A stretch of DNA of 64,000 bases, taken from positions 6,190-70,189 of IMG/VR virus record IMGVR_UViG_3300006920_000040; one strand, written 5' to 3'. Numbering within the stretch: the first letter of the stretch is position 1; each line of letters begins with the position of its first letter. The notes under the pieces are model-generated. The model ran no database searches. It worked only from the letters and a program-made list of their open reading frames with translations, and had not been told where the DNA came from. Both the position numbers and the translations under genes were made by a program. Source of the DNA: a virus. Below, one piece after another: positions 7,976 through 64,000 of this stretch.

Positions 7976-8194
7976 CTATTTATGGTCTTTTAACAACTTA
8001 TCTATAACTTTGGTTTCGGCGAAAGTTGGTTGGGATTTGCCCAGTATGAATCCAATGAATGCAAACGCCACGGTCTGGAACCATTCCAGCGGAACTATCC
8101 CTATAAAAAATCCCACAATTATCGCAAGAACGAAGAGGAGGGTAGCAATCCCGCGAACCCAAGAGGGATCTAGCTTTTTGATAAACTCACTCAT
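7976..8194 (-). CDS. Small two-TM membrane protein, holin-like
   Basis: Start reassigned to ATG 8194 (MSEFIKK). Two hydrophobic segments, charged C-terminus, late box. Confidence 0.5.
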   Translation of the reverse strand: MSEFIKKLDPSWVRGIATLLFVLAIIVGFFIGIVPLEWFQTVAFAFIGFILGKSQPTFAETKVIDKLLKDHK

Positions 8195-19920: not shown

Positions 19921-20229
19921 ATGAATAACTACAAACTATTACCTGAGAAATATAAGCCCCGTAATCAGACCACTTCAAACCATCTGATTAATGTCGGGGT
20001 TAATACAGAACTATACTGTAACGTGCATATGGATATTCATTCACAAACATTATCCGCATGGGTTAAATTTGATATGGGTGAGGTTAGAAAATCGTTCAAA
20101 TACGGGAATTTTAATGAAGCTTTGAGTTGGCTGGAGACGGAGCTATGGGAGTTAACCTTATTATTAGAAATTAGGGGTGCCGGAACCGTAATAAGGGAAC
20201 TTATTAACGAAATTAAAAACAATGAGTGA
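19921..20229 (+). CDS. Hypothetical protein
   Basis: 102 aa ORF overlapping the clamp loader start. Confidence 0.55.
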   Translation: MNNYKLLPEKYKPRNQTTSNHLINVGVNTELYCNVHMDIHSQTLSAWVKFDMGEVRKSFKYGNFNEALSWLETELWELTLLLEIRGAGTVIRELINEIKNNE

Positions 20230-21151
20230 TAAACTACTAGACCTACTTTGGCAGGAAAAATTCCGCCCCAAATCCCTCGATGAACTCGTTGTTGATGATA
20301 GCATCAAAAGACAAATTAAAGAGTTCACCACTGCTGGGGAGATCCCCCACATCCTTTTAATTGGAACCGCAGGAATTGGAAAAACTAGCCTTGCCAAAAT
20401 CCTTGTTGAGGACATTCTGGATTGTGAGTATCTGGCATTGAATGGCTCAGATGAAGGCGGCATTGACACCGTTCGGACAAAAGTCAAAGGATTTGCCTCA
20501 TCAGCCACATTTGATCGAAAGAAGAAAGTTATTATTTTTGGGGAAGCGGACGGGCTTACCAAAGCTGCACAAAACTCTTTGAAGGAAATCATTGAAGATT
20601 ATTCCGAGACCACTCGATTCATCTTCACCGCAAACGATGAGTCGAAACTATCAGCACCAATCATTAGCAGGTGTCAGAAGATCAATTTGTTCTGCAAATA
20701 TGAACCGTTCAAAGATCACTGCGTTTCCATCTTAGAGAAGGAAGGTGTGGATTACGATCTAGAGTCTGTCGAGAAGTGCATTAAACCATGCTTCCCCGAC
20801 TTCAGGAAGGCTCTTGTGGACATGAGGGCAAGCATTTCCGAGGGGGTGTTTACATTCAACCCAAAACAAGTTAATAAGAAATTCCCCCAACTGGTATGGA
20901 TGATGCTTGAGCGTGAGAAATCACCCGAGACTATCAGAGAGGTTTGCATTCAACAAAGCGCAGAATATGGTGCTCATGTCGAATTAATGGTTGACTTAAC
21001 GCATGTAGCTGTTAAAAAATACCCCGCCGCAATCAGTCGTGTAATACTACTTCTGATGAACAAATATATGGTGCAAGATAGCCAAGTTTATGATAAAGAG
21101 ATAAACTTCGCCTGTCTTTTGATTGACCTCTCAAAATTAGAATTAAAATAA
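20222..21151 (+). CDS. Sliding-clamp loader ATPase subunit (T4 gp44/RFC-like)
   Basis: WQEKFRPKSL, GTAGIGKT, NGSDEGGID, SRC, FPDFRK. Confidence 0.95.
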   Translation: MSDKLLDLLWQEKFRPKSLDELVVDDSIKRQIKEFTTAGEIPHILLIGTAGIGKTSLAKILVEDILDCEYLALNGSDEGGIDTVRTKVKGFASSATFDRKKKVIIFGEADGLTKAAQNSLKEIIEDYSETTRFIFTANDESKLSAPIISRCQKINLFCKYEPFKDHCVSILEKEGVDYDLESVEKCIKPCFPDFRKALVDMRASISEGVFTFNPKQVNKKFPQLVWMMLEREKSPETIREVCIQQSAEYGAHVELMVDLTHVAVKKYPAAISRVILLLMNKYMVQDSQVYDKEINFACLLIDLSKLELK

Positions 21152-37331: not shown

Positions 37332-37365
37332 AAAAGAGGAGATCGTGAATGATCTCCTCTTTTTT
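37332..37365. terminator. Bidirectional intrinsic terminator
   Basis: AAAAGAGGAGATC-gtgaat-GATCTCCTCTTTTTT between convergent genes. Confidence 0.85.
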
Positions 37366-39226
37366 ATTTGCCCATCAACCCAAGGATACTCTTACGGTGA
37401 TTTGGTGGTAGCTCTAAAAACTTCTCCACACCAGTCGCCCATATTTCATCATCATTGGACAATCCGTATTCGTCCCAACCAACGATGGCGCTCAGGTTTT
37501 CGCGAAGCTTATTTTTATCCTCACCCGATAAGTTGTGAGCAGCAGTAGGTAGTGTATTGTGCTTATACAGCTTATTCGTCACACTGAACAGGTAGTCTTT
37601 AATATCCATCAAGATGTCGCTATCGCCATTCTTGACACGCTCGATGTAGTTGCCCTGTATTTCTTCGAGATATTCGGTGGGGAATTCCTCACTATATTTC
37701 TCCGATTCCTCGGAAGCATACCACATGTCCTTAACCGTAGGATACATGTCCGTGGTGATCATCTGCATTATCCTACCAACCACCTTATCAATCAACCTAT
37801 CATCATCAAATCGAGGTAACTCAAGACGATCCCATTCCTCTTTGATAATCCTCTTGATACTTCCCTCATAACTTTCAACCCCATTGAGGGTATTTTTCGA
37901 GGTGGGCTTTTTAACCGGTTCGCCGCCAAACCCATCGTCATCACCGGACGTGGGGGTGTTGCCATAAACCAACCAACCGATCATATTTGTGATCTTTTTA
38001 GACAAACCGTCAGTGTCCATCTTGTCCTGTAACTCATGTTCCAAATTGGAAAACTCCCTATCTTCCTCGCTACCCGCCCAATGGTCGGAGTCAGTATCCA
38101 AGTCATTCTCCATGTGGTCACCACCAATCATCTCTTGATAGTAGTCGTAGACTGCCCTCTTAAAACCTTTACTATTATTGAACATCCATAAATGCGCCCA
38201 CTCATGGACGACTATATTGACGAAATGATGGGAGCGGATGGTTTCGTTTAAGGAATCATCAATGTCGATAAATTTGGAACCGACAGACATGTGCTTGGCA
38301 TGTGACCTAGAAGCCCAACCCCCAACACCCCCACCGGTATTTTGGTTAACAGTATCCGACACATCCTTGATGACAATATTGGCATGCATCTTGGGGAACC
38401 CCATCTTGGTAATATTGCGAAGGGCAATACTCAAATCCTTTTTAATCTGCGGGATTTTTTTCTCAAAACCTGACATCTCATCATCGGAGAAATCGGATTT
38501 ATCTACAAAGACCGAAAACATCTGAACATCCACAAGGTGATTAAGGTTTTTCTTTTTTCGAAATTTAGAATTCTCTGTCAAGAAAACACCATAACCCTGT
38601 GGATCAATGGAACTTGTAACTAGACCCAATGCTCGATCAAATTTGGATTCCTTGATAGAGTTGGAGTATTTATCGAATCTACGGGAAAGGGGGGTTATGC
38701 CACCCCTTTTATCATAAGTGACGGGGTCTGCGGATTTGATTTGACGAGGATCAAATACGGCATATTCGATAATATCACCGCTCTCTACATCTTTGTTTAT
38801 GGATGAGGAGAATCCACGCTCTTTAAGATCATCTACCGTTTCGTCTGTAGAAAACTTCTCAACGGATTTACCTAACCGCAAATATGCGCGTTGGACAACC
38901 GGAACACCACCCCCTCTATCTGATGATAGTTGCGCATACATATCTGCAAAATTCTTATCTATCGCAAAAAAAACAGCAGGTCTAACCTCAATGCCCTTCG
39001 CATTACTCCCAATCTGAGGTATGAAAACATCAGGTATTTCTCCTGATGTCCCATGAAACCCCTCCACACTATAACCTGCGCTCTTTGCAGCACCATCAAC
39101 CATACCCTGTAGTTCTTCGGCATTCTCTTCAGGGTATTGCGCAAGCTCCATATATCGCTCATCACCACCCTGAACTGGTTGTTCGGATTCTATCAAAAAC
39201 TTAACATATTCCTTGAAGGAGTTCAT
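37364..39226 (-). CDS. Leader-tagged two-domain protein: ART-PolyVal-like ADP-ribosyltransferase plus HExxH metallopeptidase
   Basis: MNSFKEYVKFLIESE leader; FHGT...VFFA...EYAVFDPRQIKSADPVTYD; VHEWAH...DEIWA. Confidence 0.75.
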   Translation of the reverse strand: MNSFKEYVKFLIESEQPVQGGDERYMELAQYPEENAEELQGMVDGAAKSAGYSVEGFHGTSGEIPDVFIPQIGSNAKGIEVRPAVFFAIDKNFADMYAQLSSDRGGGVPVVQRAYLRLGKSVEKFSTDETVDDLKERGFSSSINKDVESGDIIEYAVFDPRQIKSADPVTYDKRGGITPLSRRFDKYSNSIKESKFDRALGLVTSSIDPQGYGVFLTENSKFRKKKNLNHLVDVQMFSVFVDKSDFSDDEMSGFEKKIPQIKKDLSIALRNITKMGFPKMHANIVIKDVSDTVNQNTGGGVGGWASRSHAKHMSVGSKFIDIDDSLNETIRSHHFVNIVVHEWAHLWMFNNSKGFKRAVYDYYQEMIGGDHMENDLDTDSDHWAGSEEDREFSNLEHELQDKMDTDGLSKKITNMIGWLVYGNTPTSGDDDGFGGEPVKKPTSKNTLNGVESYEGSIKRIIKEEWDRLELPRFDDDRLIDKVVGRIMQMITTDMYPTVKDMWYASEESEKYSEEFPTEYLEEIQGNYIERVKNGDSDILMDIKDYLFSVTNKLYKHNTLPTAAHNLSGEDKNKLRENLSAIVGWDEYGLSNDDEIWATGVEKFLELPPNHRKSILGLMGK

Positions 39227-39235
39227 TGATTGTAA

Positions 39236-39571
39236 TTATACCACGGGCTTCTCACCATCAGGACGCCAAATCAGGCGATCCTCACACTTTGGTTTATATG
39301 GTTTCCGACCAGCCTGTAATAGCTCTTTAACTCTAACCGGATCATCAAATCTAGAATTGAGGAAAAGGTTTGCGAAGTGTTTGAACAACTCACCACCCTC
39401 CTCCTTATAGAAAAAGATCAAGCCCATGAAGCGATTCTCACGAAGAGTCTTGAGTTGTTTTTTGATATGTTCATCGTCAACCAAATCCGTAGGTGAATAA
39501 TATTCATCTCGCCATCTCGTTTTAAGGTTATGGATATAATCTTCGTCAGTGGTTTCTAGATATTTTGTCAT
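39236..39571 (-). CDS. Hypothetical protein
   Basis: MTKYLETT start. Confidence 0.55.
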   Translation of the reverse strand: MTKYLETTDEDYIHNLKTRWRDEYYSPTDLVDDEHIKKQLKTLRENRFMGLIFFYKEEGGELFKHFANLFLNSRFDDPVRVKELLQAGRKPYKPKCEDRLIWRPDGEKPVV

Positions 39572-39668
39572 AGTAATTTGTTTGGGATGATTTTGGAATT
39601 CACACAAACACCGTCCCTCTTGAAGACGAGAGTTTTAAATTGTTCTCGGGTTAACAGTTTAACATTGT

Positions 39669-40400
39669 TCATTTTAACAATCCCCCATAACCATATAAGA
39701 GGACTTCGCAAGCAAAATCATTATCGAAAGTATAACCCACAGTGTCCTCAAGTTTATCCACTTTTTTGATTTGCTCTTCACACAGTTTCGAAACTTCGGA
39801 AAGCTCAAATTCTTCTGGATGCGTCTTCAGCCGAAGACAGATATCAAACACGGGAGTTCCTTTCAAGGAAACCGGAAACACCCCCGTTTTGAAAAACTGC
39901 TCACCACAATAAGCCAGACGGATCATGTGAGAGACGTTTTTGGGCGAGAAACCATGTTTGTCTAGGGCGGCTTTACGAGCACCACCCAAATGCCCCGTGC
40001 GGACACCCCGAGCGTGTTTCGACTCATTAAAGACATGGCCCTTCAAGCTGTGCATGAGTGCCTTAGAGTCCATTAGGCGTTTATAATTCTTCTGGATCAT
40101 GTCAAAGACCGGTGTCTTCATCCTGAAAGAATCCTCTGGTGCAAATAGCGCCTCGATTGAATTCGTATTTGTCCTTTTCAGTTTCTTCAGGAAGTAATTT
40201 AATTCGAAGTAAGCATAATCTTCTTCGTCGCTCTGGTTTACTTTGGTCTCATCCTTTTTAAACCCGAATAGTGCTGGTGTTGAATCTGTTAAATACACAC
40301 CTCTCAGATCAATATCCGAGTTTACCGTGTTCAAATTATACAGGTGACTTCCGCCCAAGTATTCGCAGACTATGTTTTTTCCAAATTTTGATGTTCTCAT
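39669..40400 (-). CDS. Pol-beta superfamily nucleotidyltransferase
   Basis: GSHLYNLNT..SDIDLRGVY, K..SHMIRL. Confidence 0.88.
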   Translation of the reverse strand: MRTSKFGKNIVCEYLGGSHLYNLNTVNSDIDLRGVYLTDSTPALFGFKKDETKVNQSDEEDYAYFELNYFLKKLKRTNTNSIEALFAPEDSFRMKTPVFDMIQKNYKRLMDSKALMHSLKGHVFNESKHARGVRTGHLGGARKAALDKHGFSPKNVSHMIRLAYCGEQFFKTGVFPVSLKGTPVFDICLRLKTHPEEFELSEVSKLCEEQIKKVDKLEDTVGYTFDNDFACEVLLYGYGGLLK

Positions 40401-40729
40401 CGTTTTAGTTTTCTTGATTCTTTCTTCCACGCACGGGCGATTAGATTGGCTCTATTTTTATGTTGAGCATCTTCCGTATAACCGGTGTAGCCAAAAGCGA
40501 CGAAACGCCTTTCGGTACAGAATGGGCTTAATTTATCTAGATTTAACAAATTAAAATACGGTGACATTTCATCTGCTCGGGAGTTACACGAACCCACCAC
40601 CATAGCAGGTCATCCCCGACCAGTCAAGCCGTCCCTCCAAACGGTTGTGATGTTGACTCGATTATAATCCCACATCGTCAATGCCAGTGCCGCTTTCCGC
40701 AATCCTCTCTTTCCGCATTTTAGTCTCAT
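40397..40729 (-). pseudogene. 111-codon ORF interrupted by in-frame TGA at 40610-40612 (pseudogene or readthrough)
   Basis: ATGA overlaps with both neighbours; the frame continues across a single TGA. Confidence 0.6.
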
Positions 40730-53783: not shown

Positions 53784-54434
53784 TTATTTGTTTAGAAACT
53801 CATCCAAATCAAAATCGTCACTTGAGTGGGATATATTATATTCAACCACGCAGATCTTACGACCCAACTCCTCACAGATCTCCTCAACCGTCACCTCCTC
53901 AACCGTCACCTCCTCGACTGGTTCTGTGATTCTAGTGAGGCACCACCAAGGGACAAAGTGATAGAAACCATCTAGGTTAAATCCTCTAGATGGATCACCC
54001 CACCCATAGCCTTTAATCTGAAAATTTCCACCCACAACCTTCTTAATTTCATAATCTCTTTCACCAGAGTCTACGACACCCCACCCACGGTAGTTGTCAA
54101 TCACTGGGTAGTTGGTAATCTCCACCCAGTCACCCGCCACCAAACCGCTCGCCTCTTGGTCACGGATGTATTGTTCTTCGGGGTCAATCTTGAGTTGGAG
54201 ATCCATTGAGGGAATGTCACTATTCTGACCTCGACGGCATACCCCCACACCATCCCAGCCATAGGGATATATTGAGTTATTTGTGTTCGAAGTGACGACA
54301 CCGATGACGACGACACCTTGGTTGTCCGTGGTTTTGATTTTGAGGATTTCCACTTCTTCATGACCACCAGTCCGGTAGGTGTCATCGAGATTGATCGTGT
54401 GATCTGTGGGGATGGGGACGTATTTGTCTGTCAT
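53784..54434 (-). CDS. Hypothetical protein
   Basis: ATG 6 nt after TTGACA-16-TAGGAT; C-terminal TVEEICEELG motif. Confidence 0.65.
   Translation of the reverse strand: MTDKYVPIPTDHTINLDDTYRTGGHEEVEILKIKTTDNQGVVVIGVVTSNTNNSIYPYGWDGVGVCRRGQNSDIPSMDLQLKIDPEEQYIRDQEASGLVAGDWVEITNYPVIDNYRGWGVVDSGERDYEIKKVVGGNFQIKGYGWGDPSRGFNLDGFYHFVPWWCLTRITEPVEEVTVEEVTVEEICEELGRKICVVEYNISHSSDDFDLDEFLNK
53881..53915. repeat. In-frame 15-bp tandem repeat (EEVTV x2)
   Basis: tcctcaaccgtcacc twice. Confidence 0.85.
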
Positions 54435-54464
54435 GGGCACATCCTAACAGAATCGATGGGGGTG

Positions 54465-55475
54465 TCAACAATTAATTTCGATGGATTCTGACATAATTGT
54501 GATTAAGTCAACAAACTTGGATTCTTCAATCTTCTCGGTTTTCAAAGAATCCCACCATTGGATTGCTGCTGGCATTTGTTTCGGCCATAGATAATTTTCA
54601 AGTATTTCTTTGGGTGTCCAATCACCATTAGCCAACATTTTGAAAGTCTTTAATGTTTCCTCCATAGATTTCCGAGAATTACCTGCGTCTCTTAAAAGAG
54701 TATCAACGTCGAAATCATCACGGGGTTCGAATATCTTCTTTTGACCTCGGGAGTCATAGCCGTCGCGTTTCAGATTTTTCTCGGAATAGGTATCATCCAC
54801 CTCCTTAAGAAACTCTTTTCTGGATAAACGGCGAAAGGGTTTATTGGTCATCTGATAACCATTTTCGTCCAATTCCCTTACCCAAAATGCTCTTATCGAA
54901 TTGGGGTTGAGGTCACCTGTAAACAGTGCTTGGTTTTCACCACCCATCTGCAAGAACCATGCTAAATCCGGACGATCACTCTCAAGAACCCATTCCAAAC
55001 CTTGCTTTTCAGCTTCCTTTTTAATCTCTTCGGTTCGTTTGACTTGCGCTTCCTTTCGCTGCTGGGTATTCTCTTCAGGGTCATTCGAGAAATATTCTGA
55101 CATTTGTCCTTGAACGGTATAAGATCCACTCGGCCAAACCGGAATTTCCAAATCAGATTCCTTGGCATGAAATTCGGCGATAACCGCCAATTTTTCATTT
55201 GCTCCTGTGAATTCTTTAGAGACTTTAAGCTCGGAGGACACAAATATACCCTTCGGGTTATTATTAGCTTCGTAGGAATATACCCGTTGCGCTTCACCTC
55301 TACCAGATATTCCTACTTTAGCGGCATCAACCGCATCCCTCGTATCCCTAAATCCATGGTAAACTCTTAGGGTGTCACCGTAGTTAACTTCTTCTGTATC
55401 AGAGCTACCTATATTGTGGTTAATAACCTTAGCCTCACTGATGGGATCTTGAAAATAGTCGGTAAAGTGGCGCAT
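54465..55475 (-). CDS. Leader-tagged ADP-ribosyltransferase-fold protein (H-type)
   Basis: MRHFTDYF...ISEAK leader; LRVYHG, GIFVSS, ENQALFTGDL; late box. Confidence 0.6.
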   Translation of the reverse strand: MRHFTDYFQDPISEAKVINHNIGSSDTEEVNYGDTLRVYHGFRDTRDAVDAAKVGISGRGEAQRVYSYEANNNPKGIFVSSELKVSKEFTGANEKLAVIAEFHAKESDLEIPVWPSGSYTVQGQMSEYFSNDPEENTQQRKEAQVKRTEEIKKEAEKQGLEWVLESDRPDLAWFLQMGGENQALFTGDLNPNSIRAFWVRELDENGYQMTNKPFRRLSRKEFLKEVDDTYSEKNLKRDGYDSRGQKKIFEPRDDFDVDTLLRDAGNSRKSMEETLKTFKMLANGDWTPKEILENYLWPKQMPAAIQWWDSLKTEKIEESKFVDLITIMSESIEINC

Positions 55476-55495
55476 AAAGGTATTTAGTCTATATC

Positions 55496-55738
55496 TTAAG
55501 AGTGGAATAGTGATTCAATGAGACAGATAATGACTTGATCGGAGATACTCTCGTCGGGGAAGTTAATCGAGCTACTGCATGTAAACGTAATATCATTCAA
55601 CCCCTGTTTTATTAGGTTGATGACGAATTCATCCAAATCGTCTTCAGTCTTCACCTCCCATGTCTGTTTGTCAGTCGAGAGCCGGAGGATGTCTTCACCT
55701 TTGGTGTTTTGGGTGGCGGTGGCATATATCAGTGTCAT
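55496..55738 (-). CDS. Hypothetical protein
   Basis: 80 aa ORF. Confidence 0.5.
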   Translation of the reverse strand: MTLIYATATQNTKGEDILRLSTDKQTWEVKTEDDLDEFVINLIKQGLNDITFTCSSSINFPDESISDQVIICLIESLFHS

Positions 55739-55983
55739 GATGGGAATGTCCTTTCTACAGTGTCGCGTTGGTGTTTCAATAACTCTGCATGCTTCAGTGA
55801 CTTCACCTTGATCGGAAGCTCATCCACAATCTCAACCCTGCCCCTCAGACCGTTGATACCACAACTTCGCAACATTTCGTAGTGGACGATATTGACGACT
55901 ATATACCCCCTGTTGAACCACCTTTTTCTAATCACGGTGTAAATTCTGAGGCAACTCTCGGTCCATTCTCCTTTTGGATACAT
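55735..55983 (-). CDS. Hypothetical protein
   Basis: MYPKGEW start. Confidence 0.45.
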   Translation of the reverse strand: MYPKGEWTESCLRIYTVIRKRWFNRGYIVVNIVHYEMLRSCGINGLRGRVEIVDELPIKVKSLKHAELLKHQRDTVERTFPS

Positions 55984-55991
55984 AATATTTA

Positions 55992-56150
55992 TTATCTGGT
56001 TTTGATATCGGGGTGGGTGTCTAATAATGCCCACCCAATAGTCGCCAATGCGATACCGCCCCAAGGTGAGCAGTAAGCCATCACCACAAACCCTGAGGAT
56101 ATGAGTATGGCGGCTAGGATTATGCGGGAGTGGCGTTTGAGGAAAGGCAT
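55992..56150 (-). CDS. Small membrane protein
   Basis: MPFLKRHSRIILAAILISSGFVV...; read manually. Confidence 0.45.
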   Translation of the reverse strand: MPFLKRHSRIILAAILISSGFVVMAYCSPWGGIALATIGWALLDTHPDIKTR

Positions 56151-56159
56151 GATAATAGT

Positions 56160-56432
56160 CTATTGTCCAGCGTGGAAATGAAGCTCACCGACGAGATAAA
56201 CTTTACCTTCACCGTCAACGGCAACCTCAATGGTGTTCGTCCCAATATAACCGTCTTCATATGGATCATCCTCATCCAGAATCTCCTGTCGTCGTTTATC
56301 AGTGATATCACCATCATCATTGGCGGGGTGATTGGCAATCAGTTCATCTTGCGAACCATATCCAAAGAAACTATAACCCCCATCTTGATTGTCTTGGAGG
56401 CGGGTGTGAATTGTAATCGTTTGTTGTTTCAT
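56160..56432 (-). CDS. Acidic hypothetical protein
   Basis: 90 aa; TTGACT promoter upstream. Confidence 0.6.
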   Translation of the reverse strand: MKQQTITIHTRLQDNQDGGYSFFGYGSQDELIANHPANDDGDITDKRRQEILDEDDPYEDGYIGTNTIEVAVDGEGKVYLVGELHFHAGQ

Positions 56433-56514
56433 CGGGGGTCAAGTTAACCAAAAACCAGAATAAGTCAATATTTATCTTTGACAATGAGGGTGCATCGATT
56501 ATTATACAGGGACA

Positions 56515-57207
56515 ATGAACCGACGAAACATTATCCAAGTCCTTGCCACGTCTGCACTAGGGACACTAAAACTGACTGCTGTATTGACACCCAATCCCCA
56601 ACAAATCACCGATAGATACAATAGAAAGGTCTGTAGGGAAATGCTAGCCACCATTAATGGGCTAGGGGAAGCTGGTGATCGATTCGACATCCACCGCATG
56701 ATGAAATCTGATTTGGCCAATAGGCGAAACCTCTTTTCCCCACTTATCCACAATGTGGTGGTGTCACCCGACACCAAACAGATCCAACACCCCAATGGGA
56801 AATGGTCAGAGGTCAGACACTCCCGAATTAACCAAGCCCATTATACACTTACTGAAAATGGAGAGGGTCTCACGGCATGTCTAGCGAGTGAAGCAAAGGT
56901 GCGGGTTGTCCAAAAGCTCTTAGACCAAAAACGATACACGGTTGTGGACGATGTAGACTCCGTGGATATCCCCGAAGGTTTCGTGGTTGATGATCTAGAT
57001 AGCATTGGCGCTAAAAGGTGGAGGCATGGGATTATATGCAAACTCGTTCACAACAAACCTCTGGTAACTATTAACTGGGCTTGTCTGTTGAAGCTACAGG
57101 AACCTATTTCGGTGGAAGGCTTCAGCCCATTACCCGCATTTTACACCCAATATGCAATCCACATTGGGGAACTGGAAGACACCCATTTGTGTATTCAGCG
57201 TGGTTAA
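56515..57207 (+). CDS. Hypothetical protein with twin-arginine-like N-terminus
   Basis: MNRRNIIQVLATSALG; TTGACA-16-TATTAT promoter. Confidence 0.6.
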   Translation: MNRRNIIQVLATSALGTLKLTAVLTPNPQQITDRYNRKVCREMLATINGLGEAGDRFDIHRMMKSDLANRRNLFSPLIHNVVVSPDTKQIQHPNGKWSEVRHSRINQAHYTLTENGEGLTACLASEAKVRVVQKLLDQKRYTVVDDVDSVDIPEGFVVDDLDSIGAKRWRHGIICKLVHNKPLVTINWACLLKLQEPISVEGFSPLPAFYTQYAIHIGELEDTHLCIQRG

Positions 57208-57208
57208 A

Positions 57209-57598
57209 TTAGGGGGTCCAAATCATGGACTCCCGTGTGGTGTAGTCCTTGGTTCTCCCCTTGTTGGGTTTAAATCCAAAGGACTTATAGAATTTCTCCA
57301 ACCTACCAACAGAACTGGCACCAAAGACCTTACTGGGTGTTAATAGAACTCTCATGTGATACCTCTGAGCAAGTTCCAGAAGCTCTCTCATGGCAACACT
57401 ACCAAGACCCTGACCTCGGGATTCTTTGGCGATCTTGATCTTATTAAGAGTAATACTCCCCCTGTGAGCGGATACGAACGACTCAATGCCACGTTCCTCC
57501 CACTGGTCACTGAGTGAATCCAAAGCTTTGTTTGCCGAGACATCCGCCTCTCTGGCAGTATTGGACTCGGTCAAGAAGTAGGCTTGAAAGGATATCAT
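57209..57598 (-). CDS. Leader-tagged GNAT acetyltransferase
   Basis: MISFQAYFLTES leader; RGQGLGS acetyl-CoA motif; LEKFYKSFGF. Confidence 0.88.
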   Translation of the reverse strand: MISFQAYFLTESNTAREADVSANKALDSLSDQWEERGIESFVSAHRGSITLNKIKIAKESRGQGLGSVAMRELLELAQRYHMRVLLTPSKVFGASSVGRLEKFYKSFGFKPNKGRTKDYTTRESMIWTP

Positions 57599-57617
57599 GG
57601 TATTAATTATTATCCGC

Positions 57618-58136
57618 CTAGTTTAGCCCCATTATCCGTTTGGCTCGGGGGTGGATACCGTCATCAACCACCTTCACAAGGGGATTTCCTTTGAAATCCT
57701 CTATTCGGCCTTTAACTTTTCGGCCAAGCTTACGGGAAGCGAACAACCTATGGTGACCATCATCCAATTGAATGCGACCATTTCTACCGATAATGAGTTC
57801 CACCGGTTCCTCAAAGCTGACCGAATTCACCCACTCCATCCCACGTAATTCATAGAGATACTCGGGGTTTGCCAAATCGTCCTTCCAAATAATCTCGATG
57901 TCATCGGGATCTAAATGTAGAATTTCACCACGTTCATATCCATATGCGAGGAAATCCAATTGATTAGTGATCTCCTTGGGGATTGGGATTTTACCTTCGG
58001 CAGCTTGGTGGGAAATACCACGAACATATTCCTCGTCCCAACCATCGGGTAACTGGGTGTATTCTTGGATAATATCCCCTGTTGTGGCAAATGTCTCCTC
58101 TATGATGTGGAGCATCCTGTTGAACTTGGTGGACAT
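57618..58136 (-). CDS. Leader-tagged ParB/Srx-like domain protein
   Basis: MSTKFNRMLHIIEET leader; PVEL...LDDGHHRL. Confidence 0.75.
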   Translation of the reverse strand: MSTKFNRMLHIIEETFATTGDIIQEYTQLPDGWDEEYVRGISHQAAEGKIPIPKEITNQLDFLAYGYERGEILHLDPDDIEIIWKDDLANPEYLYELRGMEWVNSVSFEEPVELIIGRNGRIQLDDGHHRLFASRKLGRKVKGRIEDFKGNPLVKVVDDGIHPRAKRIMGLN

Positions 58137-58144
58137 GATGTTAT

Positions 58145-58678
58145 TTAGTTCTTGATAATTACCTCATCCTCATAACCGAACATTTCAGGAGTTCCAATAC
58201 GAGTTCCCTTCATCCCCGCCATGACTAATATATCCGAATGATGAACACGGAATTTCTCAACACCAACCGAACCCATTGAATCCCCCACGGTGTCAACATA
58301 TTCTTTTGAGGTCGTTAATGATTTCCCCTTTATATCGGAGGGGGAATCACCCTCTCGCATTGCCCGATAGGCAGTCAAGTAACCGTCACCAGCAACGACA
58401 TCCTCTGCCTGAAACGACAAAGCGGCTTTGCTTATGTCCTGCAAGTTGTCATAGGCATCAAACATCTTCTGTTTGGAGTCACCCTCATTCAACATTATCC
58501 AGCGATCAAGATGGGGGTTTAACCTGTTATGGGCAACTTGTGCCTCTTTATCTATCTGCTCATTAGTGGGGGACACTTTATGCTCCTTACCATCTGGAGC
58601 CACCCACACCCTTTGCTTAGGCTCACCCTCAATGGATTCAAGGAACTGGGAGAGGGTTCGGTCGAACTGGGAGGGCAT
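58145..58678 (-). CDS. Leader-tagged ADP-ribosyltransferase-fold protein (R-S-E type)
   Basis: MPSQFDRTLSQFLES leader; AYRAM, SLTTS, EDEVII. Confidence 0.65.
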   Translation of the reverse strand: MPSQFDRTLSQFLESIEGEPKQRVWVAPDGKEHKVSPTNEQIDKEAQVAHNRLNPHLDRWIMLNEGDSKQKMFDAYDNLQDISKAALSFQAEDVVAGDGYLTAYRAMREGDSPSDIKGKSLTTSKEYVDTVGDSMGSVGVEKFRVHHSDILVMAGMKGTRIGTPEMFGYEDEVIIKN

Positions 58679-58732
58679 GTTGTTATTTAGTTCTTGCTAA
58701 GAAGACCAAACACCCCCATATAACCACTACAG

Positions 58733-58942
58733 ATGAACAAAATGGTAAACATAGATGTGATTGGACAAGAGCTACTTAAGAATCTGTTGGAGAAGAACCG
58801 AATCAGAGAGGTGAGGTCGGCAAACCCCGAACGCACCGACATATACCTACCCTTCCTACAATTCCTCGAAGAACAAGCGGAGCGGCTGACAAAGGTGGTT
58901 GTGGATAGCATAGAAGATGTAGATACCCCCATGGTGTATTAA
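58733..58942 (+). CDS. Hypothetical protein
   Basis: 69 aa ORF on the opposite strand between leader-tagged genes. Confidence 0.5.
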   Translation: MNKMVNIDVIGQELLKNLLEKNRIREVRSANPERTDIYLPFLQFLEEQAERLTKVVVDSIEDVDTPMVY

Positions 58943-58950
58943 TTTTATCC

Positions 58951-59613
58951 TTAGGACAGGGGATCAAAGATGACCAAACCACCATCACTGTCAAAACCAA
59001 AATTACCTGTGTGGACATCGTTCGTATAATTCCCTGTGACATCATACAAGATCTGGCCGAAGTCATAGAGTTGATCATATGTCCGGTTGTATTTCCTCAA
59101 GAAAGCATCCACTTGGTGACCAACTTCCGGCTCAATCTTATCCTGAATCATCAGGGGTATCAGACTGACAAAATTAGTCTTAGAGGGCAGACCCTCAATA
59201 TCCCACAACTCCATAACAACATTGGCGTTGGTGCTACGATCAACCTTAAGCTTCGCCATGACATATAAGTCAATCCCATAGGGACCAAAGTCATTCGTAT
59301 AATCAACGGTCTTGTGAGCGACGATGTTGGGGAGAATAGGATTATCATACTTCACCGTCTGTTTAGCAAACTCTCGGAACTTATCATCATCATAAGAAAC
59401 CTTAACAACAAAACCCCCATCAGGACCACCATATACTCTGGCGAAGGCACCCTTACCCAACTGAAAACCATGAACATCGAATATATATTTTTCAACCGCC
59501 AATTTGGCCTCTCTCATGCTCTCCTTGTCCTTGATTAAAGACTCAAGATCGACAACGATGGACTGGGCGACTGACAATCGCTCAGTTAGGAAGTAGGATT
59601 TAAAGGACTGCAT
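58951..59613 (-). CDS. Leader-tagged protein-kinase-fold enzyme
   Basis: MQSFKSYFLTE leader (start 59613); LGKGAFARVY, VVKV, DVHTGN, IFDP. Confidence 0.85.
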   Translation of the reverse strand: MQSFKSYFLTERLSVAQSIVVDLESLIKDKESMREAKLAVEKYIFDVHGFQLGKGAFARVYGGPDGGFVVKVSYDDDKFREFAKQTVKYDNPILPNIVAHKTVDYTNDFGPYGIDLYVMAKLKVDRSTNANVVMELWDIEGLPSKTNFVSLIPLMIQDKIEPEVGHQVDAFLRKYNRTYDQLYDFGQILYDVTGNYTNDVHTGNFGFDSDGGLVIFDPLS

Positions 59614-59621
59614 AGTAATAT

Positions 59622-60275
59622 TTATACTGGATGCACAACCCAAGCACCAATGGTATCATAATCTTGTTCTTGTGCATATGTGATACGATGATTGCCGTCT
59701 AATATCTTATACACCCCATCTATCAACTCCAAGGTGACAGGCGGAATACCTCTCAGGAAGGACATTTCATATTCCCGCCAATCATATCCACCATCATCTT
59801 GTTCATACTCGCTTACGAACTCTTGTATTCTATTCTCCAGTTCAACCACATTTCCCAACCACATTTCCCAGTCTTCGGGATCTTCCACATAATCGTCGTA
59901 TTGTTGTATATAATCTTGATACTCGTCCACGTCACTTGCGAATTCATCATCAACCTCTCCGTTTTCTGTTAGTTTCTCCAGTTTTCTGAGTTTGGCTTGA
60001 AGTCGGGGGAATTTGTCGCCAATGAACCACCCCCAGTGTAGTGTGGAGAACTCATCTAATGTGTCTTGTGTTTCCTGTCTACCATATTGTTCTGCTAACT
60101 GGGGGGTTAGTTCGTCCAAGTCCACCTCTTCTCTTGTGATGTTACTCACAGGCATGCCGTAGAACTCCGCCACGGTGTTCTTATCCCACTTGCCACTCAC
60201 TTGGACATCCTCCTTATCCCAATCGACGGGGACCGATTTTGACTCGGTTAGGAAGTATTCTTTGAAAGACTGCAT
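59622..60275 (-). CDS. Leader-tagged acidic protein with ParB/Srx-like domain
   Basis: MQSFKEYFLTES leader; PPVTL...ILDGNHRI. Confidence 0.75.
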   Translation of the reverse strand: MQSFKEYFLTESKSVPVDWDKEDVQVSGKWDKNTVAEFYGMPVSNITREEVDLDELTPQLAEQYGRQETQDTLDEFSTLHWGWFIGDKFPRLQAKLRKLEKLTENGEVDDEFASDVDEYQDYIQQYDDYVEDPEDWEMWLGNVVELENRIQEFVSEYEQDDGGYDWREYEMSFLRGIPPVTLELIDGVYKILDGNHRITYAQEQDYDTIGAWVVHPV

Positions 60276-60295
60276 GTTGATATTTACTCCTCAGA

Positions 60296-60730
60296 TTAAT
60301 TACCCTTCAAATAACGAGGATTGATAATAATCAACTCACTCTCATCATCACCCGCACCACGAAGCTTAGTAGTGTCAATAACCCCCTCATAAGAGAAATC
60401 AGAAAGAGGGAAGGTGTATCGCCCATAAAACTTAGCATTGCGTTTAGCCACCTCTGGATCTTTATGGAAAGTGAAACTAATGGCTGGATCGGAACTCACA
60501 CCATCATCACCCCGAAAAGCATTCTTAAGTTTCCATGCAGGGGGTGATATCTTCTTTTTGTGCCCATCCGAGAGAGAACTGTATAACTCAGCCAAATATG
60601 CCCTTGGGGCATAACCACCAACGGGAACGGTCTGGTATTCGATGACCGTGTCAAGGAATTCCTTCGGGTCGGTGGTCTTTATGGTCTCCTCGATAAGCGA
60701 GAGAGTTTGTCCGAACTTGGATTGGTGCAT
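60296..60730 (-). CDS. Leader-tagged ADP-ribosyltransferase-fold protein (R-S-E type)
   Basis: MHQSKFGQTLSLIEET leader; AFRGD, ISFT, ESELII. Confidence 0.6.
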   Translation of the reverse strand: MHQSKFGQTLSLIEETIKTTDPKEFLDTVIEYQTVPVGGYAPRAYLAELYSSLSDGHKKKISPPAWKLKNAFRGDDGVSSDPAISFTFHKDPEVAKRNAKFYGRYTFPLSDFSYEGVIDTTKLRGAGDDESELIIINPRYLKGN

Positions 60731-60785
60731 AGTAATATTTAGAGCCGTTTGTTACGATTTAACAGATCTTAAATTGGGGAATGCC

Positions 60786-61640
60786 CTAAACACTAGCGAA
60801 TTTTATGTCTCGCTTGGGTGTTCTCATATTCTTACCAAGTAAACCCTCTCGGTTCATTTTCCGAACAATCTCTTTCGAGAACTCATCCAGATCCTCTTGG
60901 GGCAATTTACTGGTTGCATTTCTATATGCTTGCCTCAAAGAAGAATGTTTATTGAATAAATTAACGAATGATAGCTTATCCCAGTCTTTTTCAGAAACCC
61001 CCCTTTTGACTTGAGACATTTGATGAATAAAGGACTCAATCTCATGAGGACTGGTATTTCGAAATTTAACCATATCACGGGGTGTGGGCTTGACATTAAC
61101 CCGACTTAGTGCTTTGGACACCTTATTTTCATAGAGTGCCTCCTCCAACCAGTGAGTCAATTCATGTGCAATTGTCCCTTTTATTCGCTGGGCGCTGAAC
61201 TCATTCGTTATATTGGGGTATTCCGCTATTATTTCTTTGTTACCCAAACCCGCTTTACCCAGAACATCAATAGCATTGGAGTTAAGTGCAATATAAAGTT
61301 TACCTTCAGCGGGATTGTAATGACTGGGACCACTGGCAACCAAGTATATCTTAATCGGTTTGTTGTCATGCGCTCTGTCGGATACCTCAGAAGGCAAGTC
61401 ACCACTACGGATTGGACCCACCATAAGAGGGGACCCCCTATCATAAAGATGTCTGGGGTTTTTAGCATATTCCTCAAGGTGATCACTCACCCCCAATTCA
61501 TCAAAAAGATAATCCACATCCTCATCAATATCAAACAAACTCTCCAGAACCAATTCCTGATGAGCCTCAATAAGAACATCCACCCCACCATAGTGACACA
61601 TCTGCTCCTCGATAGTGGATATTAGATTCTCAAATTTCAT
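60786..61640 (-). CDS. Leader-tagged HExxH zinc metallopeptidase
   Basis: MKFENLISTIEE leader; TIAHELTHW...SPHEIES. Confidence 0.78.
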   Translation of the reverse strand: MKFENLISTIEEQMCHYGGVDVLIEAHQELVLESLFDIDEDVDYLFDELGVSDHLEEYAKNPRHLYDRGSPLMVGPIRSGDLPSEVSDRAHDNKPIKIYLVASGPSHYNPAEGKLYIALNSNAIDVLGKAGLGNKEIIAEYPNITNEFSAQRIKGTIAHELTHWLEEALYENKVSKALSRVNVKPTPRDMVKFRNTSPHEIESFIHQMSQVKRGVSEKDWDKLSFVNLFNKHSSLRQAYRNATSKLPQEDLDEFSKEIVRKMNREGLLGKNMRTPKRDIKFASV

Positions 61641-61647
61641 GTAATTT

Positions 61648-61678
61648 TAATTATAGGAGAATTGGGCGGGTATGTCAA
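61648..61678 (-). promoter_or_regulatory. Consensus sigma70 promoter overlapping a TAATTA late box
   Basis: TTGACA-17-TATAAT(TA). Confidence 0.7.
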
Positions 61679-61684
61679 CAACTA

Positions 61685-62153
61685 TTATTCACTCATTTCA
61701 CCGTCTTCACCAAAGAAGTTCTCATAATCCAAATAAGTGCTATCGGTGTCAATGGAATCAGGATTCAACTTAACATCAGGCAACTTCTTCCAAGTGTAAC
61801 CGCCACCCTCCTCATACTCATACGGACTAAGCCCTATTCTATAAACCTCTTTAGACTTGTGGTTCACAATATACAAGTCAGTATGAAACTCATATTCATC
61901 ATACTAGGTGAACGGCTCCCAATCAGAAAAAGGGGTGCCTTCCACAAGCTCACCAAATACATCACCCATAGAAGATGCCACATTGTCACAGATGCCACCA
62001 TTCCCGTAATCACACGAATACCCCCTCTTCATCCTGCTCCCAGTCATCATAGACCTGTTGCGCACCAGCAATGAGTTGCGGCTTAATACTGTTGATGAAG
62101 TCTTCAATGGAACCAGTGGACTCAGTTAAGAAGTAGGATTTGAAAGATTGCAT
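61685..62153 (-). pseudogene. Leader-tagged gene disrupted by an extra base in a G5 run (62021-62025) and an in-frame TAG (61904-61906)
   Basis: MQSFKSYFLTESTG...DEEG / YSCDYGNGGICDNVA...PFT*YDEYEFH...EEGGGYTWKK. Confidence 0.75.
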
Positions 62154-62230
62154 AATGATATTTAGGAAATACCTTATAGGGTAGATCGTGTTCTCTCGGA
62201 ACTCGTATTAATATCGAGATACACCAAACC

Positions 62231-62238
62231 TATAAATA
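62231..62238 (+). promoter_or_regulatory. T4-type late promoter TATAAATA
   Basis: Exact T4 late consensus, 5 nt before ATG 62244. Confidence 0.8.
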
Positions 62239-62243
62239 CCTGT

Positions 62244-64000
62244 ATGCAAAGCTTCAAAGAATTTTTTGATGAGTCACTTCTATTAGAAGCCAAAGATCCC
62301 CAAGCTTATGTTGAAGAATTATTCGGAAGCTTTTTTGATTTGTTTGAAGTATATAAAGAGGATTTACATTTCTCCCCCCAATTTGAACATTATCTGGAAA
62401 ATACAAAAAATATTATTGAAAGTTCGTTTGGGTATTTGCGTTCCTCAGACAGAATTAACTTCTTCGCACCCTTCTTCATGTTCGCCTTGTTGAATAAAAC
62501 TTCGGGTTACGTGGATGTTATCAACCCAAAAACAGAATTTACCAAAAAGTTAAAACGAATTGACAATAATAATCAGAAAAAGATCGACGTTGGGTCACAG
62601 ACTAATATGAGTATTAACAATATGGCAGATACCATTAAGCATTATTTTAGAGACCAAGCTAACATCCAGACAATCCAAGCCTACACGTTCGGTAATAAGC
62701 CGAGAAATTATAATGATCGTATTGGGGATTTAGAACTCCTCGAAAATAAGTTTAACGAGAAGGCGGGTAAGGTTCTCGACCCTGCTCAAGATGATCCCGA
62801 GGGAACCGAGCTTATCACAAAATTAGTAGATAGCAAGAAGGTGTATTTTGAGTGGGTCAATTTATACACGGAAAATTGCCCCACAAAAGAAGCCCAATTA
62901 ATGAATCATTGTGGGTCTAGTGATAAAGCAGATACCATGTTTTCATTGAGAAGAGCTTTTAATAAACAAGAATTGACTAATTTGGGTATTACCCAGAAAG
63001 AAGGTAGACTTTTAAGAAAACCCGTAATAACTTTTGCAATGGAATATGATGGCGATTCATATATCCTAGTGGAATCACACGGAATTTCAAATTCCAAACC
63101 ACAAGTAGAATTCCATGAAGCGATTGTTGCGTTGTTTGAAACTAAAATAATTTCCGGCATTAATCAAAGGGGTGCATATAGTAAGGGAACTACTTTTAAG
63201 CTTGATGATCTTTCTCCAGAATTAAGAGCCAGAGTGGAAGAAGCAAATCCCGATCTTGAGGAAGAAGCAGCTCCTATTTTTGAAGAAGAAGAAATTAAGC
63301 GTGCGGAGCAACTAATCGAGAATGTGGATTTACCTGAAGGGGTTGCGGTTTATATGGATGAAGATTCGGATGCGTACGCGGACGATGATTATACCGATAA
63401 ATACGGTATCCCTTATCGAATTGATTGGGGGTATGAAATAGATATGTCTCAGTTTAACCTTGATACATCCACATTGGAATGGGATAATATTAAATCAAAA
63501 TTAAACATACACGATAACACCGAGTGGGGATCTGGTGGGGATTCAGAAGATGTAGATATATTATCGGTTAGGTTACACGAACCGATAACAGCTTACCCTT
63601 CAGAAGATAACCTATATGTAACAGTTAATGGTGCTATTGATGACGCAAGGGGCAGTTATGAAACTTTCATCGAAGACATATTACCCCTTATTATTACAAA
63701 CTACGGACCCGAAACCAGCTCCGAGATTGAAGAGTATTTTGAAAACTTTAAGGAAATTAAAGATGACTTAGATGTTGAAGTGGGAATTACCCCTGATGGG
63801 CTTATTTATAAGCACGAAATTACTACGAATTTAAACACGGTAGAAATGCCCCAAAAATCAACACTGGTTAACTGGATTCGTAAGTGGAACAAAGATGATA
63901 TTTTGGATAAGACATTACCGAAAAGCCGTAATAAAAACGACTTCGATCCAAACCAAATGGAATTTGAATTTCCTGAAAGACAAATGGTTGAAGAACATTC
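62244..64000 (+). CDS. Large leader-tagged protein with PcfJ-like domain, 3' partial (absent from the ORF track)
   Basis: MQSFKEFFDESLLLEAK; EAQLMNHCG...FSLR...PVITF...ESHGISNSKP; acidic region follows, apparently open to the window end. Confidence 0.75.
   Translation, partial: MQSFKEFFDESLLLEAKDPQAYVEELFGSFFDLFEVYKEDLHFSPQFEHYLENTKNIIESSFGYLRSSDRINFFAPFFMFALLNKTSGYVDVINPKTEFTKKLKRIDNNNQKKIDVGSQTNMSINNMADTIKHYFRDQANIQTIQAYTFGNKPRNYNDRIGDLELLENKFNEKAGKVLDPAQDDPEGTELITKLVDSKKVYFEWVNLYTENCPTKEAQLMNHCGSSDKADTMFSLRRAFNKQELTNLGITQKEGRLLRKPVITFAMEYDGDSYILVESHGISNSKPQVEFHEAIVALFETKIISGINQRGAYSKGTTFKLDDLSPELRARVEEANPDLEEEAAPIFEEEEIKRAEQLIENVDLPEGVAVYMDEDSDAYADDDYTDKYGIPYRIDWGYEIDMSQFNLDTSTLEWDNIKSKLNIHDNTEWGSGGDSEDVDILSVRLHEPITAYPSEDNLYVTVNGAIDDARGSYETFIEDILPLIITNYGPETSSEIEEYFENFKEIKDDLDVEVGITPDGLIYKHEITTNLNTVEMPQKSTLVNWIRKWNKDDILDKTLPKSRNKNDFDPNQMEFEFPERQMVEEH

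Follow-up and report, generated by a model that had tools for sequence, protein, structure and literature searches.

Why should eleven genes of one phage, whose products are otherwise unrelated, begin with variants of the same few residues? The question is raised by a stretch of 64,000 nucleotides of viral DNA (hereafter the window), which comprises bases 6190-70189 of a linear 70,189-bp IMG/VR record (G000) with a CheckV completeness of ~30%. Ten of the genes lie within 54465-64000 and the eleventh at 37364-39226. A sequence-only reading of the window had proposed that they form a cassette system, in which a promoter and a leader peptide load variable enzymes into the phage head for injection with the DNA. 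We propose, with a probability of about three in four, that an uncultured freshwater T4-like phage targets the eleven products to its head as internal proteins and that a protease processes them there. The proposal builds on shared leaders, unrelated bodies, the likeness of leader and cleavage motif to those of T4, the conservation of leader plus junction among relatives, and the proteases found in leader-bearing records, all of which are observed. The core of the earlier interpretation, a T4-type leader on interchangeable cargo with a late-type start signal, is supported, while its list of cargo functions and its claim to novelty were overstated.

Eleven genes with a shared N-terminal leader

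All eleven open reading frames (ORFs) were located where the sequence-only reading had placed them, and each begins with one of the leaders it had described (Table 1). Their bodies are unrelated: an all-against-all BLASTP search from residue 17 onwards (11-sequence database) gave a best E of 0.17. The N-termini, in contrast, are alignable across both leader classes (MAFFT) and follow a single pattern of M, one to four residues, F, two residues, a hydrophobic or aromatic residue, one to four residues, and [L/I/F]-x-E. The leader ends in L-T-E in four genes and in L-I-E, I-S-E, I-E-E or I-I-E elsewhere, the departures from L or I being F-D-E in A6 (62244-63998) and F-L-E in B2 (58145-58678).

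The expectation that a hidden Markov model (HMM) of the leaders would single out these genes held on the record. Searched against the 96 full-length proteins of the 70,189-bp record, ten leader proteins included, the HMM matched only the N-termini of those ten (6.1-17 bits), the best match elsewhere scoring 1.9 bits. In a leave-one-out analysis, seven of the 11 leaders rank first against 689 other N-terminal candidates; the remaining four rank 2, 8, 29 (B4, 60786-61640) and 119 (A1, 54465-55475). The pentapeptide YFLTE occurs four times in the six-frame translation of the record.

Across the six pairwise comparisons of the four FLTE leaders, over 12 codons each, 37 codons are identical, 21 differ synonymously and 14 non-synonymously. 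Ser is encoded by both TCN and AGC, the latter in a fifth leader. The 21 synonymous against 14 non-synonymous differences therefore indicate selection on the peptide and not on the DNA, and the idea that the leader DNA is a mere recombination handle was rejected because of this synonymous variation.

Table 1. The eleven leader genes, with the leader of each product and the residue that follows it (aa, amino acids).
Gene	Class	Position (strand)	Leader	Next residue	Product length
A1	A	54465-55475 (-)	MRHFTDYFQDPISE	A	336 aa
A2	A	57209-57598 (-)	MISFQAYFLTES; MISFQAYFLTE	S	129 aa
A3	A	58951-59613 (-)	MQSFKSYFLTE	R	220 aa
A4	A	59622-60275 (-)	MQSFKEYFLTES; MQSFKEYFLTE	S	217 aa
A5s	A	62010-62153 (-)	MQSFKSYFLTES; MQSFKSYFLTE	S	47 aa
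A6	A	62244-63998 (+)	MQSFKEFFDE	S	>585 aa, cut by contig end
A7	A	37364-39226 (-)	MNSFKEYVKFLIES / MNSFKEYVKFLIE	S	620 aa
B1	B	57618-58136 (-)	MSTKFNRMLHIIEE		172 aa
B2	B	58145-58678 (-)	MPSQFDRTLSQFLES / MPSQFDRTLSQFLE	S	177 aa
B3	B	60296-60730 (-)	MHQSKFGQTLSLIEE		144 aa
B4	B	60786-61640 (-)	MKFENLISTIEE		284 aa

Likeness to the T4 capsid-targeting sequence

The proposed resemblance to the capsid-targeting sequence (CTS) of the T4 internal proteins (Ips) was borne out by comparison with NC_000866. IPII and IPIII of T4 begin MKTYQEFIAE, followed by A, and IPI begins MKTFKEF; the class A leader, M-Q-S-F-K-E-[YF]-F-L-T-E, is nearly the same as the start of IPI. MQSFKEF or MQSFKEY here corresponds to MKTFKEF there, and in each case positions 4 and 7 are aromatic and L/I-x-E comes next. 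In class A these two residues are F (4) and Y or F (7), and in T4 they are Y or F (4) and F (7). These are the positions that matter in T4: the first ten residues of IPIII suffice for incorporation into the head, and within them residues 4 and 7 are the main determinants of targeting and residues 8 and 10 those of processing (PMC9026906). Class B leaders have their aromatic residue at a shifted position (F at 3-6) and match the T4 targeting positions less closely.

The end of the leader resembles a T4 processing site. The T4 prohead protease gp21 cleaves after the Glu of L/I-x-E, and the longest N-terminal propeptide in T4 has 65 residues (PMC9026906). T4 gp23 carries FLTE, the tetrapeptide with which class A leaders end, at residues 62-65. 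Cleavage of gp23 by gp21 presumably falls after Glu65, consistent with the 65-residue figure of the review. The capsid proteins of two near-complete leader-bearing records, G007 (242.6 kb, CheckV 100%) and G001 (208 kb, 99% complete), have L-x-E-A at residues 58-61 and 61-64 respectively, equivalent to L-T-E-A of T4 gp23. T4 Alt begins MELITELFDE, and its F-D-E end recurs in A6.

The sequence-only reading counted on a gp21-like protease in the genome; there is none within the 70-kb record, but five larger leader-bearing records have one. A degenerate DNA pattern for MQSFK-x-YFLTE matched one other viral record, G001, which encodes a 201-aa leader protein beginning MQSFKEYFLTEA (exact MQSFKEYFLTE). 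About 5 kb away is a module that comprises a gp23 homologue (252 bits), a scaffold-like gene and a gene for Peptidase_S77 (83 bits; cut-off 27). G000 and G001 have only five of 96 proteins in common, at 24-31% identity, and an identical leader in such distant phages points to strong constraint on it. Five large records contain leader-tagged homologues of the A7 metallopeptidase described below; Peptidase_S77 is present in four of them at 98-107 bits and the fifth is 67% complete. The Peptidase_S77 proteins of leader-bearing records are 29-35% identical to T4 gp21.

In G007, leader genes cluster at 79.9-86.9 kb, 126.6-129.1 kb and 31.2-33.6 kb, many of them starting MKFD[DE]L[IV]..[IL]LE. The clusters lie 20-25 kb from the Peptidase_S77 gene (60.6 kb) and the gp23 homologue (62.9 kb).

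The leader is short, amphipathic and charged and has no signal-peptide hydrophobic core, its match to the T4 head-targeting sequence is residue for residue at the functionally mapped positions, and the G001 leader gene adjoins a head module. These features make it quite improbable that the leader is a tag for some other fate, such as the membrane or secretion, a chaperone or degradation pathway, or incorporation into the tail or baseplate. Such a destination would fit the position of A7, 6 kb from the baseplate gene gp6 in a window without head genes, and the predicted helicity of the leader (first block of the A3 model at a predicted local distance difference test score, pLDDT, of 59).

Start signal and expression timing

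As had been described, a TAAATA or TAATTA box lies 5-7 nucleotides (nt) upstream of the ATG in all 11 leader genes. TAAATA stands exactly 5 nt from the ATG in eight of them, A1 included, and TAATTA at 5 (A2), 6 and 7 nt in the other three. The full TATAAATA occurs in two leader genes, and in A6 it ends 5 nt before the ATG. In A3 the boxed ATG is at 59613; the listed 230-aa ORF begins further upstream with TTG. None of the 11 genes is preceded by a Shine-Dalgarno sequence.

The box also occurs outside the cassettes, since leader genes account for eight of the 12 ORF starts with TAAATA plus ATG and for three of the 10 with TAATTA plus ATG. Eleven other ATG ORFs are boxed. Eight of these were scanned and three identified, encoding endolysin, tail tube and baseplate gp6, which are typical late functions; five had no match. 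The T4 late promoter is an 8-bp TATA box that spans -13 to -6, its first base at -13 (PMC2988020). With a T4-type box ending at -6, a 5-nt spacer would therefore make the A of the ATG the +1 position. The near-complete G001 and G007 each encode a homologue of gp55, the late sigma factor of T4 (E 1e-8 and 2e-8). Late expression of the leader genes, possibly from mRNAs that start at the initiation codon, is a reasonable inference from these sequences.

The same features raise the question of whether the shared first codons reflect a translation requirement, the 5' coding sequence recruiting the ribosome on late mRNAs that lack an untranslated leader or a Shine-Dalgarno site, so that gene starts converge. 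The absence of Shine-Dalgarno sequences, the short distance from box to ATG and a +1 on the A of the ATG (as follows for a T4-like late box ending at -6; PMC2988020) would all suit this idea. Yet the endolysin, tail tube and gp6 genes are boxed with the same spacing and do not encode the leader peptide, the codon differences identify the peptide as the conserved part, and the peptide pattern persists in distant phages with different DNA. T4 itself pairs a homologous leader with normal ribosome-binding sites, and the internal leader of A7 cannot serve initiation. A translational origin is therefore very unlikely.

Other boxed starts with 5-8 nt spacing and no Shine-Dalgarno sequence are at 7971, 8194, 8211, 16518, 24075, 29376, 36979 and 45181, those at 8194 and 8211 being divergent and 16 bp apart. 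Shine-Dalgarno sites are generally scarce, which may mean that the host can do without them. A candidate twelfth leader gene, 20164-20592 (-), beginning MISFKEF and scoring 7.4 bits, was rejected because it is not boxed and shares its DNA with a conserved gene on the plus strand.

Leaders and cargos among relatives

Homologues of individual cargos keep both the leader and its junction with the cargo. The junction is E followed by A-K-F-R/S in the metallopeptidase family, by RLSVA in the kinase-like family and by A-[KR]-VIN in the family of A1. Both homologues of the kinase-like cargo, A3, carry the leader and the RLSVA junction. The class of leader can change on a given cargo: the metallopeptidase has a class A leader in L027-L034 and a class B leader in L047/L048 and L035-L041, and one cargo cluster has class B MKFDELVQKLLE in G007 versus class A MKSFRNFLLE in L042. 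Judged on these sequences, the two leader classes appear to be interchangeable.

Arrays of three to six boxed leader genes occur in L032, L036, L045 and L049, and the complete G007 has at least 11 (conservative filter). When all fetched DNA was pooled, 48 of 692 boxed N-terminal candidates qualified as leaders versus 17 of 4482 unboxed ones. The resulting 44 unique leader proteins fall into 31 cargo clusters. These pooled counts are lower bounds because the HMM was trained on the leaders of the window only.

Upstream of the metallopeptidase cassette in L047 (4350-4440; also in L048) there is a 45-bp tandem direct duplication of the box, the start and the first ten codons, the upstream copy having ACG instead of ATG. 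The duplication records a past event of recombination or slippage in the promoter-leader segment. Could the leader then be a functionless by-product, the same start having been spread by recurrent recombination at such segments? This duplication and the fused gene A7 both speak for cassette recombination. Recent copying, however, predicts near-identical DNA, whereas the leaders differ synonymously, and the pattern holds across phages with almost nothing else in common. Recombination would also account for the spread of the leader but not for its retention, and we regard a by-product as very improbable.

A fused gene with an internal leader

The 620-aa product of A7 (37364-39226) contains, in order, the leader, an ART-PolyVal domain (residues ~57-167), an internal leader remnant (195-218) and an HExxH metallopeptidase. 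ART-PolyVal is matched at E 3.5e-6 (28.3 bits vs a cut-off of 31.2), and the database annotation likewise gives PF18760. All 22 homologues of A7 correspond to its C-terminal part only. Sixteen of these solo metallopeptidase homologues were fetched, and 13 of them have an M-x-x-F...L-x-E leader of their own, with A/S-K/R-F-R/S behind it. When A7 is aligned with the homologues, its internal YGVFLTE, followed by NSKFRKKK, coincides with the ends of their leaders, and SKFDRAL just upstream of it resembles class B. The segment HEWAHLWMFN is invariant in the alignment; SprT-like profiles match seven of 12 family members and YgjP-like profiles six of 12.

Since the leaders of the solo homologues align with the internal remnant, A7 is a fusion of two cassettes. 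It is a candidate polyprotein, and it suggests how single-domain cassettes and multi-domain injected proteins may interconvert.

Cargo identities

The cargos were scanned with Pfam and PHROG profiles, and selected ones were analysed with ESM Atlas, PDB sequence searches, Foldseek and hhalign. The sequence-only reading had named four ADP-ribosyltransferase (ART) folds, a GNAT, a kinase, two ParB-like domains, two HExxH peptidases, a PcfJ-like domain and a Cys/His protein, and these assignments fared unequally.

The GNAT call, on A2 (57209-57598), has fair support from both profile sets. Acetyltransf_7 matches at E 8.6e-6 (26.5 bits vs a cut-off of 27). Matches to three other GNAT models range from E 5e-4 to 1.6e-3, and phrog_1758 (acetyltransferase) matches at E 2.3e-4. 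A2 also matches positions 2682-2795 of the 3925-position profile phrog_10691 (E 1.2e-18).

The ART calls are fairly supported for A7 and weakly for A1, while those on B2 (58145-58678) and B3 (60296-60730) found no support from any tool. A1 matches Pfam ART-PolyVal at E 0.084 (14.1 bits vs a cut-off of 31.2), and its cargo is possibly, on this weak match, ART-PolyVal-like. PDB sequence matches of A1 and of A4 (59622-60275) are at chance level only. B2 has no Pfam or PHROG match, no homologue but itself and no PDB sequence match, and its best ESM Atlas score of 0.88 is uninformative. B3 has no Pfam or PHROG match, all its PDB sequence matches are at E >= 0.22, and its single-sequence model (pLDDT 44) is unusable. 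The last ~25 residues of A1 (EESKFVDLITIMSESIEINC; 54465-54540) are missing in the L032 homologue and resemble a class B leader. The DNA of the same segment contains TTGACA-N16-TAGGAT, which resembles a sigma70 promoter and stands 6 nt upstream of where the following gene starts (ATG at 54434).

One of the two ParB-like calls, on B1 (57618-58136), is fairly supported as ParB/Srx-like. B1 has the motif DDGHHR, and its family profile matches sulfiredoxin at E 0.0034 and SbnI at E 0.06-0.33. Its relatives at E <= 1e-3 number 187; among the 150 listed, 27 are proteins of 800-2772 aa with the domain internal. Eight relatives were scanned and three had a Pfam match: one to Portal_Mu, one to LPD23 plus ART-PolyVal, and one to LPD22. 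The first of these, P0032 (800 aa), has the B1-type domain fused to the C-terminus of a Mu-type portal (Portal_Mu, 250 bits), a fusion that would be another way of placing the domain inside the phage head. The second ParB-like call, on A4, comes down to a moderate C-terminal motif, LDGNHR, which follows an acidic region. Residues 157-205 of A4 match the B1-family profile at E 0.0018 and 14.7% probability (hhalign), and Pfam gave no ParB match.

For A3 (58951-59613), the kinase call is upheld at moderate strength as a kinase-like fold, below a safe match level. A3 matches phrog_15752 (protein kinase) at E 2.5e-5. Its model (pLDDT 82.9) gave a Foldseek list made up entirely of kinases and aminoglycoside phosphotransferases, all at E >= 2.5e-3. 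The best VIA hit, at Z 6.5, is the MPS1 kinase (root-mean-square deviation 4.4, 135 residues aligned), and none reached Z >= 8. All three sequences compared share the Gly-loop, VVK, H-x-G-N and F-D-P motifs without change. Of the two HExxH peptidases, the zincin of A7 is supported, while B4 shows the HELTH motif only and has no Pfam or PHROG match.

The remaining two calls were not upheld. A6 has no match to the PcfJ family PF14284 at E <= 0.1, nor any other Pfam or PHROG match, and the lead comes from a language model: ESM Atlas places A6 near viral clusters (score 0.92), and in one of these clusters 26% of the members carry PcfJ. Residues 114-340 of A6 have relatives in L034 and G007. The Cys/His protein could not be located, and the 47-aa ORF A5s (62010-62153) contains neither residue. 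A5s may be a tiny internal protein or the remnant of a cassette that has decayed. Behind it, within 61641-62153, are two short ORFs in another frame of the same strand; the segment may represent three small genes, or one cassette that a frameshift and a stop have disrupted. Among eight leader proteins of G007 and two of L032, Pfam gave one match above cut-off (DUF6934), the rest being weak, and cluster look-up of P0008, P0019 and P0001 returned no names.

The nature of the cargo bears on whether these proteins leave the head at all. The leader might well address the prohead core, with the proteins nevertheless being assembly factors or head-internal components that are degraded or retained and not injected, for example extra scaffold, DNA-condensing proteins or enzymes acting on packaged DNA. 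In T4 the same protease and motif process the core proteins gp22, gp67 and gp68, which never reach the host (PMC9026906); several cargos here have no recognisable enzyme domain, and A4 is strongly acidic, like T4 gp67. Against this, GNAT, ART-PolyVal, kinase-like, ParB/Srx-like and zincin domains are of host-modifying or conflict type and also occur in proteins described as injected polyvalent proteins (PMC5512222). The turnover of cargo (31 clusters in 44 proteins) also suits an arms race better than a structural role. We consider such an assembly or head-internal role without injection unlikely.

Proposed mechanism

We favour head targeting followed by injection. Each gene would be read from its own T4-late-type box, the transcript starting at or next to the AUG. 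The product would begin with an 11-16-residue CTS homologous to that of T4 IPI, IPII and IPIII, which would dock it onto the prohead scaffolding core. A gp21-type serine protease would then cleave after the Glu of the terminal [L/I]-x-E and release the mature enzyme inside the head. At infection the enzymes would exit with the DNA and act on host proteins or nucleic acids before phage gene expression. A7 would represent two cassettes fused in frame with the second leader retained, and may be cut into two enzymes.

Several points weigh against this mechanism. G000 has no Peptidase_S77 and no scaffold or capsid gene, although the missing protease weighs little because the record is 30% complete. 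The protease link consequently rests on other records, of which G001 shares just five of 96 proteins with G000, and none of the four records with the closest gp6 relatives (4-33% complete) has Peptidase_S77. No gp55 homologue was found in the G000 or G002 fragments. The box is common to other genes and resembles a general AT-rich start context, and Shine-Dalgarno sites are scarce throughout. [L/I]-x-E triplets are frequent within the cargos, so the motif alone predicts little, and three of the 16 fetched metallopeptidase homologues have no M-x-x-F leader. The largest cargos (>585 and 620 aa) would have to exit through the tail. Late timing, packaging, cleavage, injection and targets are steps that we infer from sequence.

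The leaders of A1 and B4 are also weak on the evidence of the window alone (ranks 119 and 29). That of A1 is backed by a 38%-identical homologue in L032/L033, whose MRSFSEFYKIQE, followed by ARVIN, aligns with MRHFTDYFQDPISE, followed by AKVIN. That of B4, MKFENLISTIEE, resembles the recurrent G007 type MKFD[DE]L..[IL]LE and the leader of the L047 metallopeptidase, MKFEELYKLVTIEE.

A broader proposition is that a large, uncultured T4-like branch replaced the giant polyvalent protein by a universal two-class leader of 11-16 residues on dozens of swappable enzyme cassettes, expressed from late mRNAs without an untranslated leader, with fusions such as A7 being polyproteins cut by the prohead protease at the internal leaders they have kept. 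We put this forward tentatively, rating its chances somewhat below even. The related notion of a polyvalent protein split into separate units is supported for three domains (ART-PolyVal, GNAT and the ParB/Srx-like domain of B1).

Comparison with known systems

The closest known counterparts are T4 IPI, IPII and IPIII and the ip loci of other T-even phages, where, as here, unrelated bodies share one short leader and cluster in a hotspot. T-even internal proteins are diverse, and their only common part is the leader (PMC3012670, PMC9026906, PMC12373910). Ip1-3, which share the leader only, inhibit different GmrSD enzymes, and at least 10 Ip types occupy a genomic hotspot (PMC12373910). It has been suggested that evolution uses the CTS to get proteins of various kinds packaged (PMC9026906). 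T4 has three Ips plus Alt, whereas there are at least 11 leader genes here in 30% of a genome. The T4 proteins are 95-193 aa long and the characterised ones are non-enzymatic restriction inhibitors, whereas the cargos here range from 47 to >620 aa and several are enzyme-like. In contrast to the T4 Ips, the present leaders fall into two classes and have one extra residue ahead of L-x-E, and their genes lack Shine-Dalgarno sequences and have a box that abuts the ATG. Its gp6 is ~26% identical to T4-like gp6, and packaging, known in T4, is predicted here.

T4 Alt is an enzyme whose N-terminus likewise carries a short propeptide with Glu as its last residue. It is packaged via the prohead core and processed by gp21 (PMC9026906). 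Its gene adjoins baseplate genes, and A7 is near gp6. Alt, however, belongs to the R-S-E clade and not to ART-PolyVal (PMC5512222), and in a comparison confined to the N-terminus its leader is not obviously alignable with class A or B.

Polyvalent proteins carry two to 15 domains per polypeptide; solo versions of their domains beside late genes have been noted, and so have cassette-like small ORFs (Iyer et al. 2017, PMC5512222). Their repertoire includes ART-PolyVal, GNAT, ParB-like, metallopeptidase and kinase domains, as does the list proposed here, and delivery with the DNA is proposed for them as for the cassettes. The B1 domain occurs inside giants bearing LPD22, LPD23 and ART-PolyVal, although membership of the repertoire is demonstrated for three cargos only. 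Unlike polyvalent proteins, the cargos here are encoded by separate genes, each with its own start signal and leader and no MuF or portal fusion. Ten of the genes have at most one recognisable domain, and only A7 has two. The account of solo versions in PMC5512222 does not link them to the CTS.

In phiKZ, 201phi2-1 and SPN3US, a relative of gp21 matures many of the proteins inside the head, cleaving them behind the Glu of a three-residue motif (PMC9026906). The motif given for these phages differs, being S/A-x-E, and the review's account of them mentions no shared N-terminal leader (PMC9026906). Their tail and baseplate genes are not T4-like.

Because the shared-leader principle is already published, what is new is the combination only, and the finding enlarges a mechanism known from T4 and does not add another. 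The literature searched yielded no description of CTS-tagged enzyme arrays in environmental T4-like phages, and Repoila et al. 1994 and supplementary files may hold closer precedents. Within that literature the combination appears to be new: a leader family in distant environmental T4-like phages, an apparent polyvalent-type enzyme load, two seemingly interchangeable leader classes and a fused cassette with an internal leader.

Proteins injected by a phage act first in infection, and those characterised in T4, Ip1-3 and Alt, counter host defences or serve to take over the host. The T4 addressing system appears to serve at least 11 cargos in one third of the present genome and at least 31 unrelated cargo families, most without annotation, in the sampled relatives. 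If the leader works as in T4, candidate injected effectors, anti-defence enzymes among them, could be listed from sequence alone in uncultured T4-like phages. The finding would then join the literatures on the T4 CTS and on polyvalent proteins, and would supply natural leader variants for T4 protein-packaging technology. If the modular replacement of the polyvalent protein is also true, the leader would be a 'zip code' for injected effectors in metagenomes, most of them without a known fold.

Phage identity and neighbouring genes

G000 encodes a ribonucleotide reductase, a DNA ligase and an exonuclease (family scan), as well as a baseplate wedge protein of the T4 gp6 family (phrog_219, E 2e-38). 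The closest gp6 proteins among deposited phages, from cyanophages and RB16-like phages, are 26% identical. Together these genes identify G000 as a distant T4-like phage. With 70,189 bp judged to be 30% of the whole, its genome would measure ~230 kb.

Megablast of 54000-64000 against 50,697 phage records found no near-identical DNA, and tblastn searches of these records with A7, A6 and the homologue P0016 were likewise negative; no deposited phage therefore has these cargos at tblastn sensitivity. An exact 60-nt search of metagenome contigs for more of the G000 phage also returned no match. Near-identical DNA was found only in five DNA runs labelled freshwater metagenome, from two studies. No RNA run with near-identical sequence was found, a result that is uninformative on expression. 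A protein identical to the 620-aa product of A7 is also encoded on a 198,680-bp contig.

The cassette array is broken up by four ORFs that have neither a leader nor a family match, at 56515-57207 (+) and 55496-56432 (-); one of the four is on the opposite strand. Some 440 bp from A7 is a leaderless nucleotidyltransferase gene (39669-40430; phrog_388, E 2.2e-27), with a small ORF, 39236-39607, between the two.

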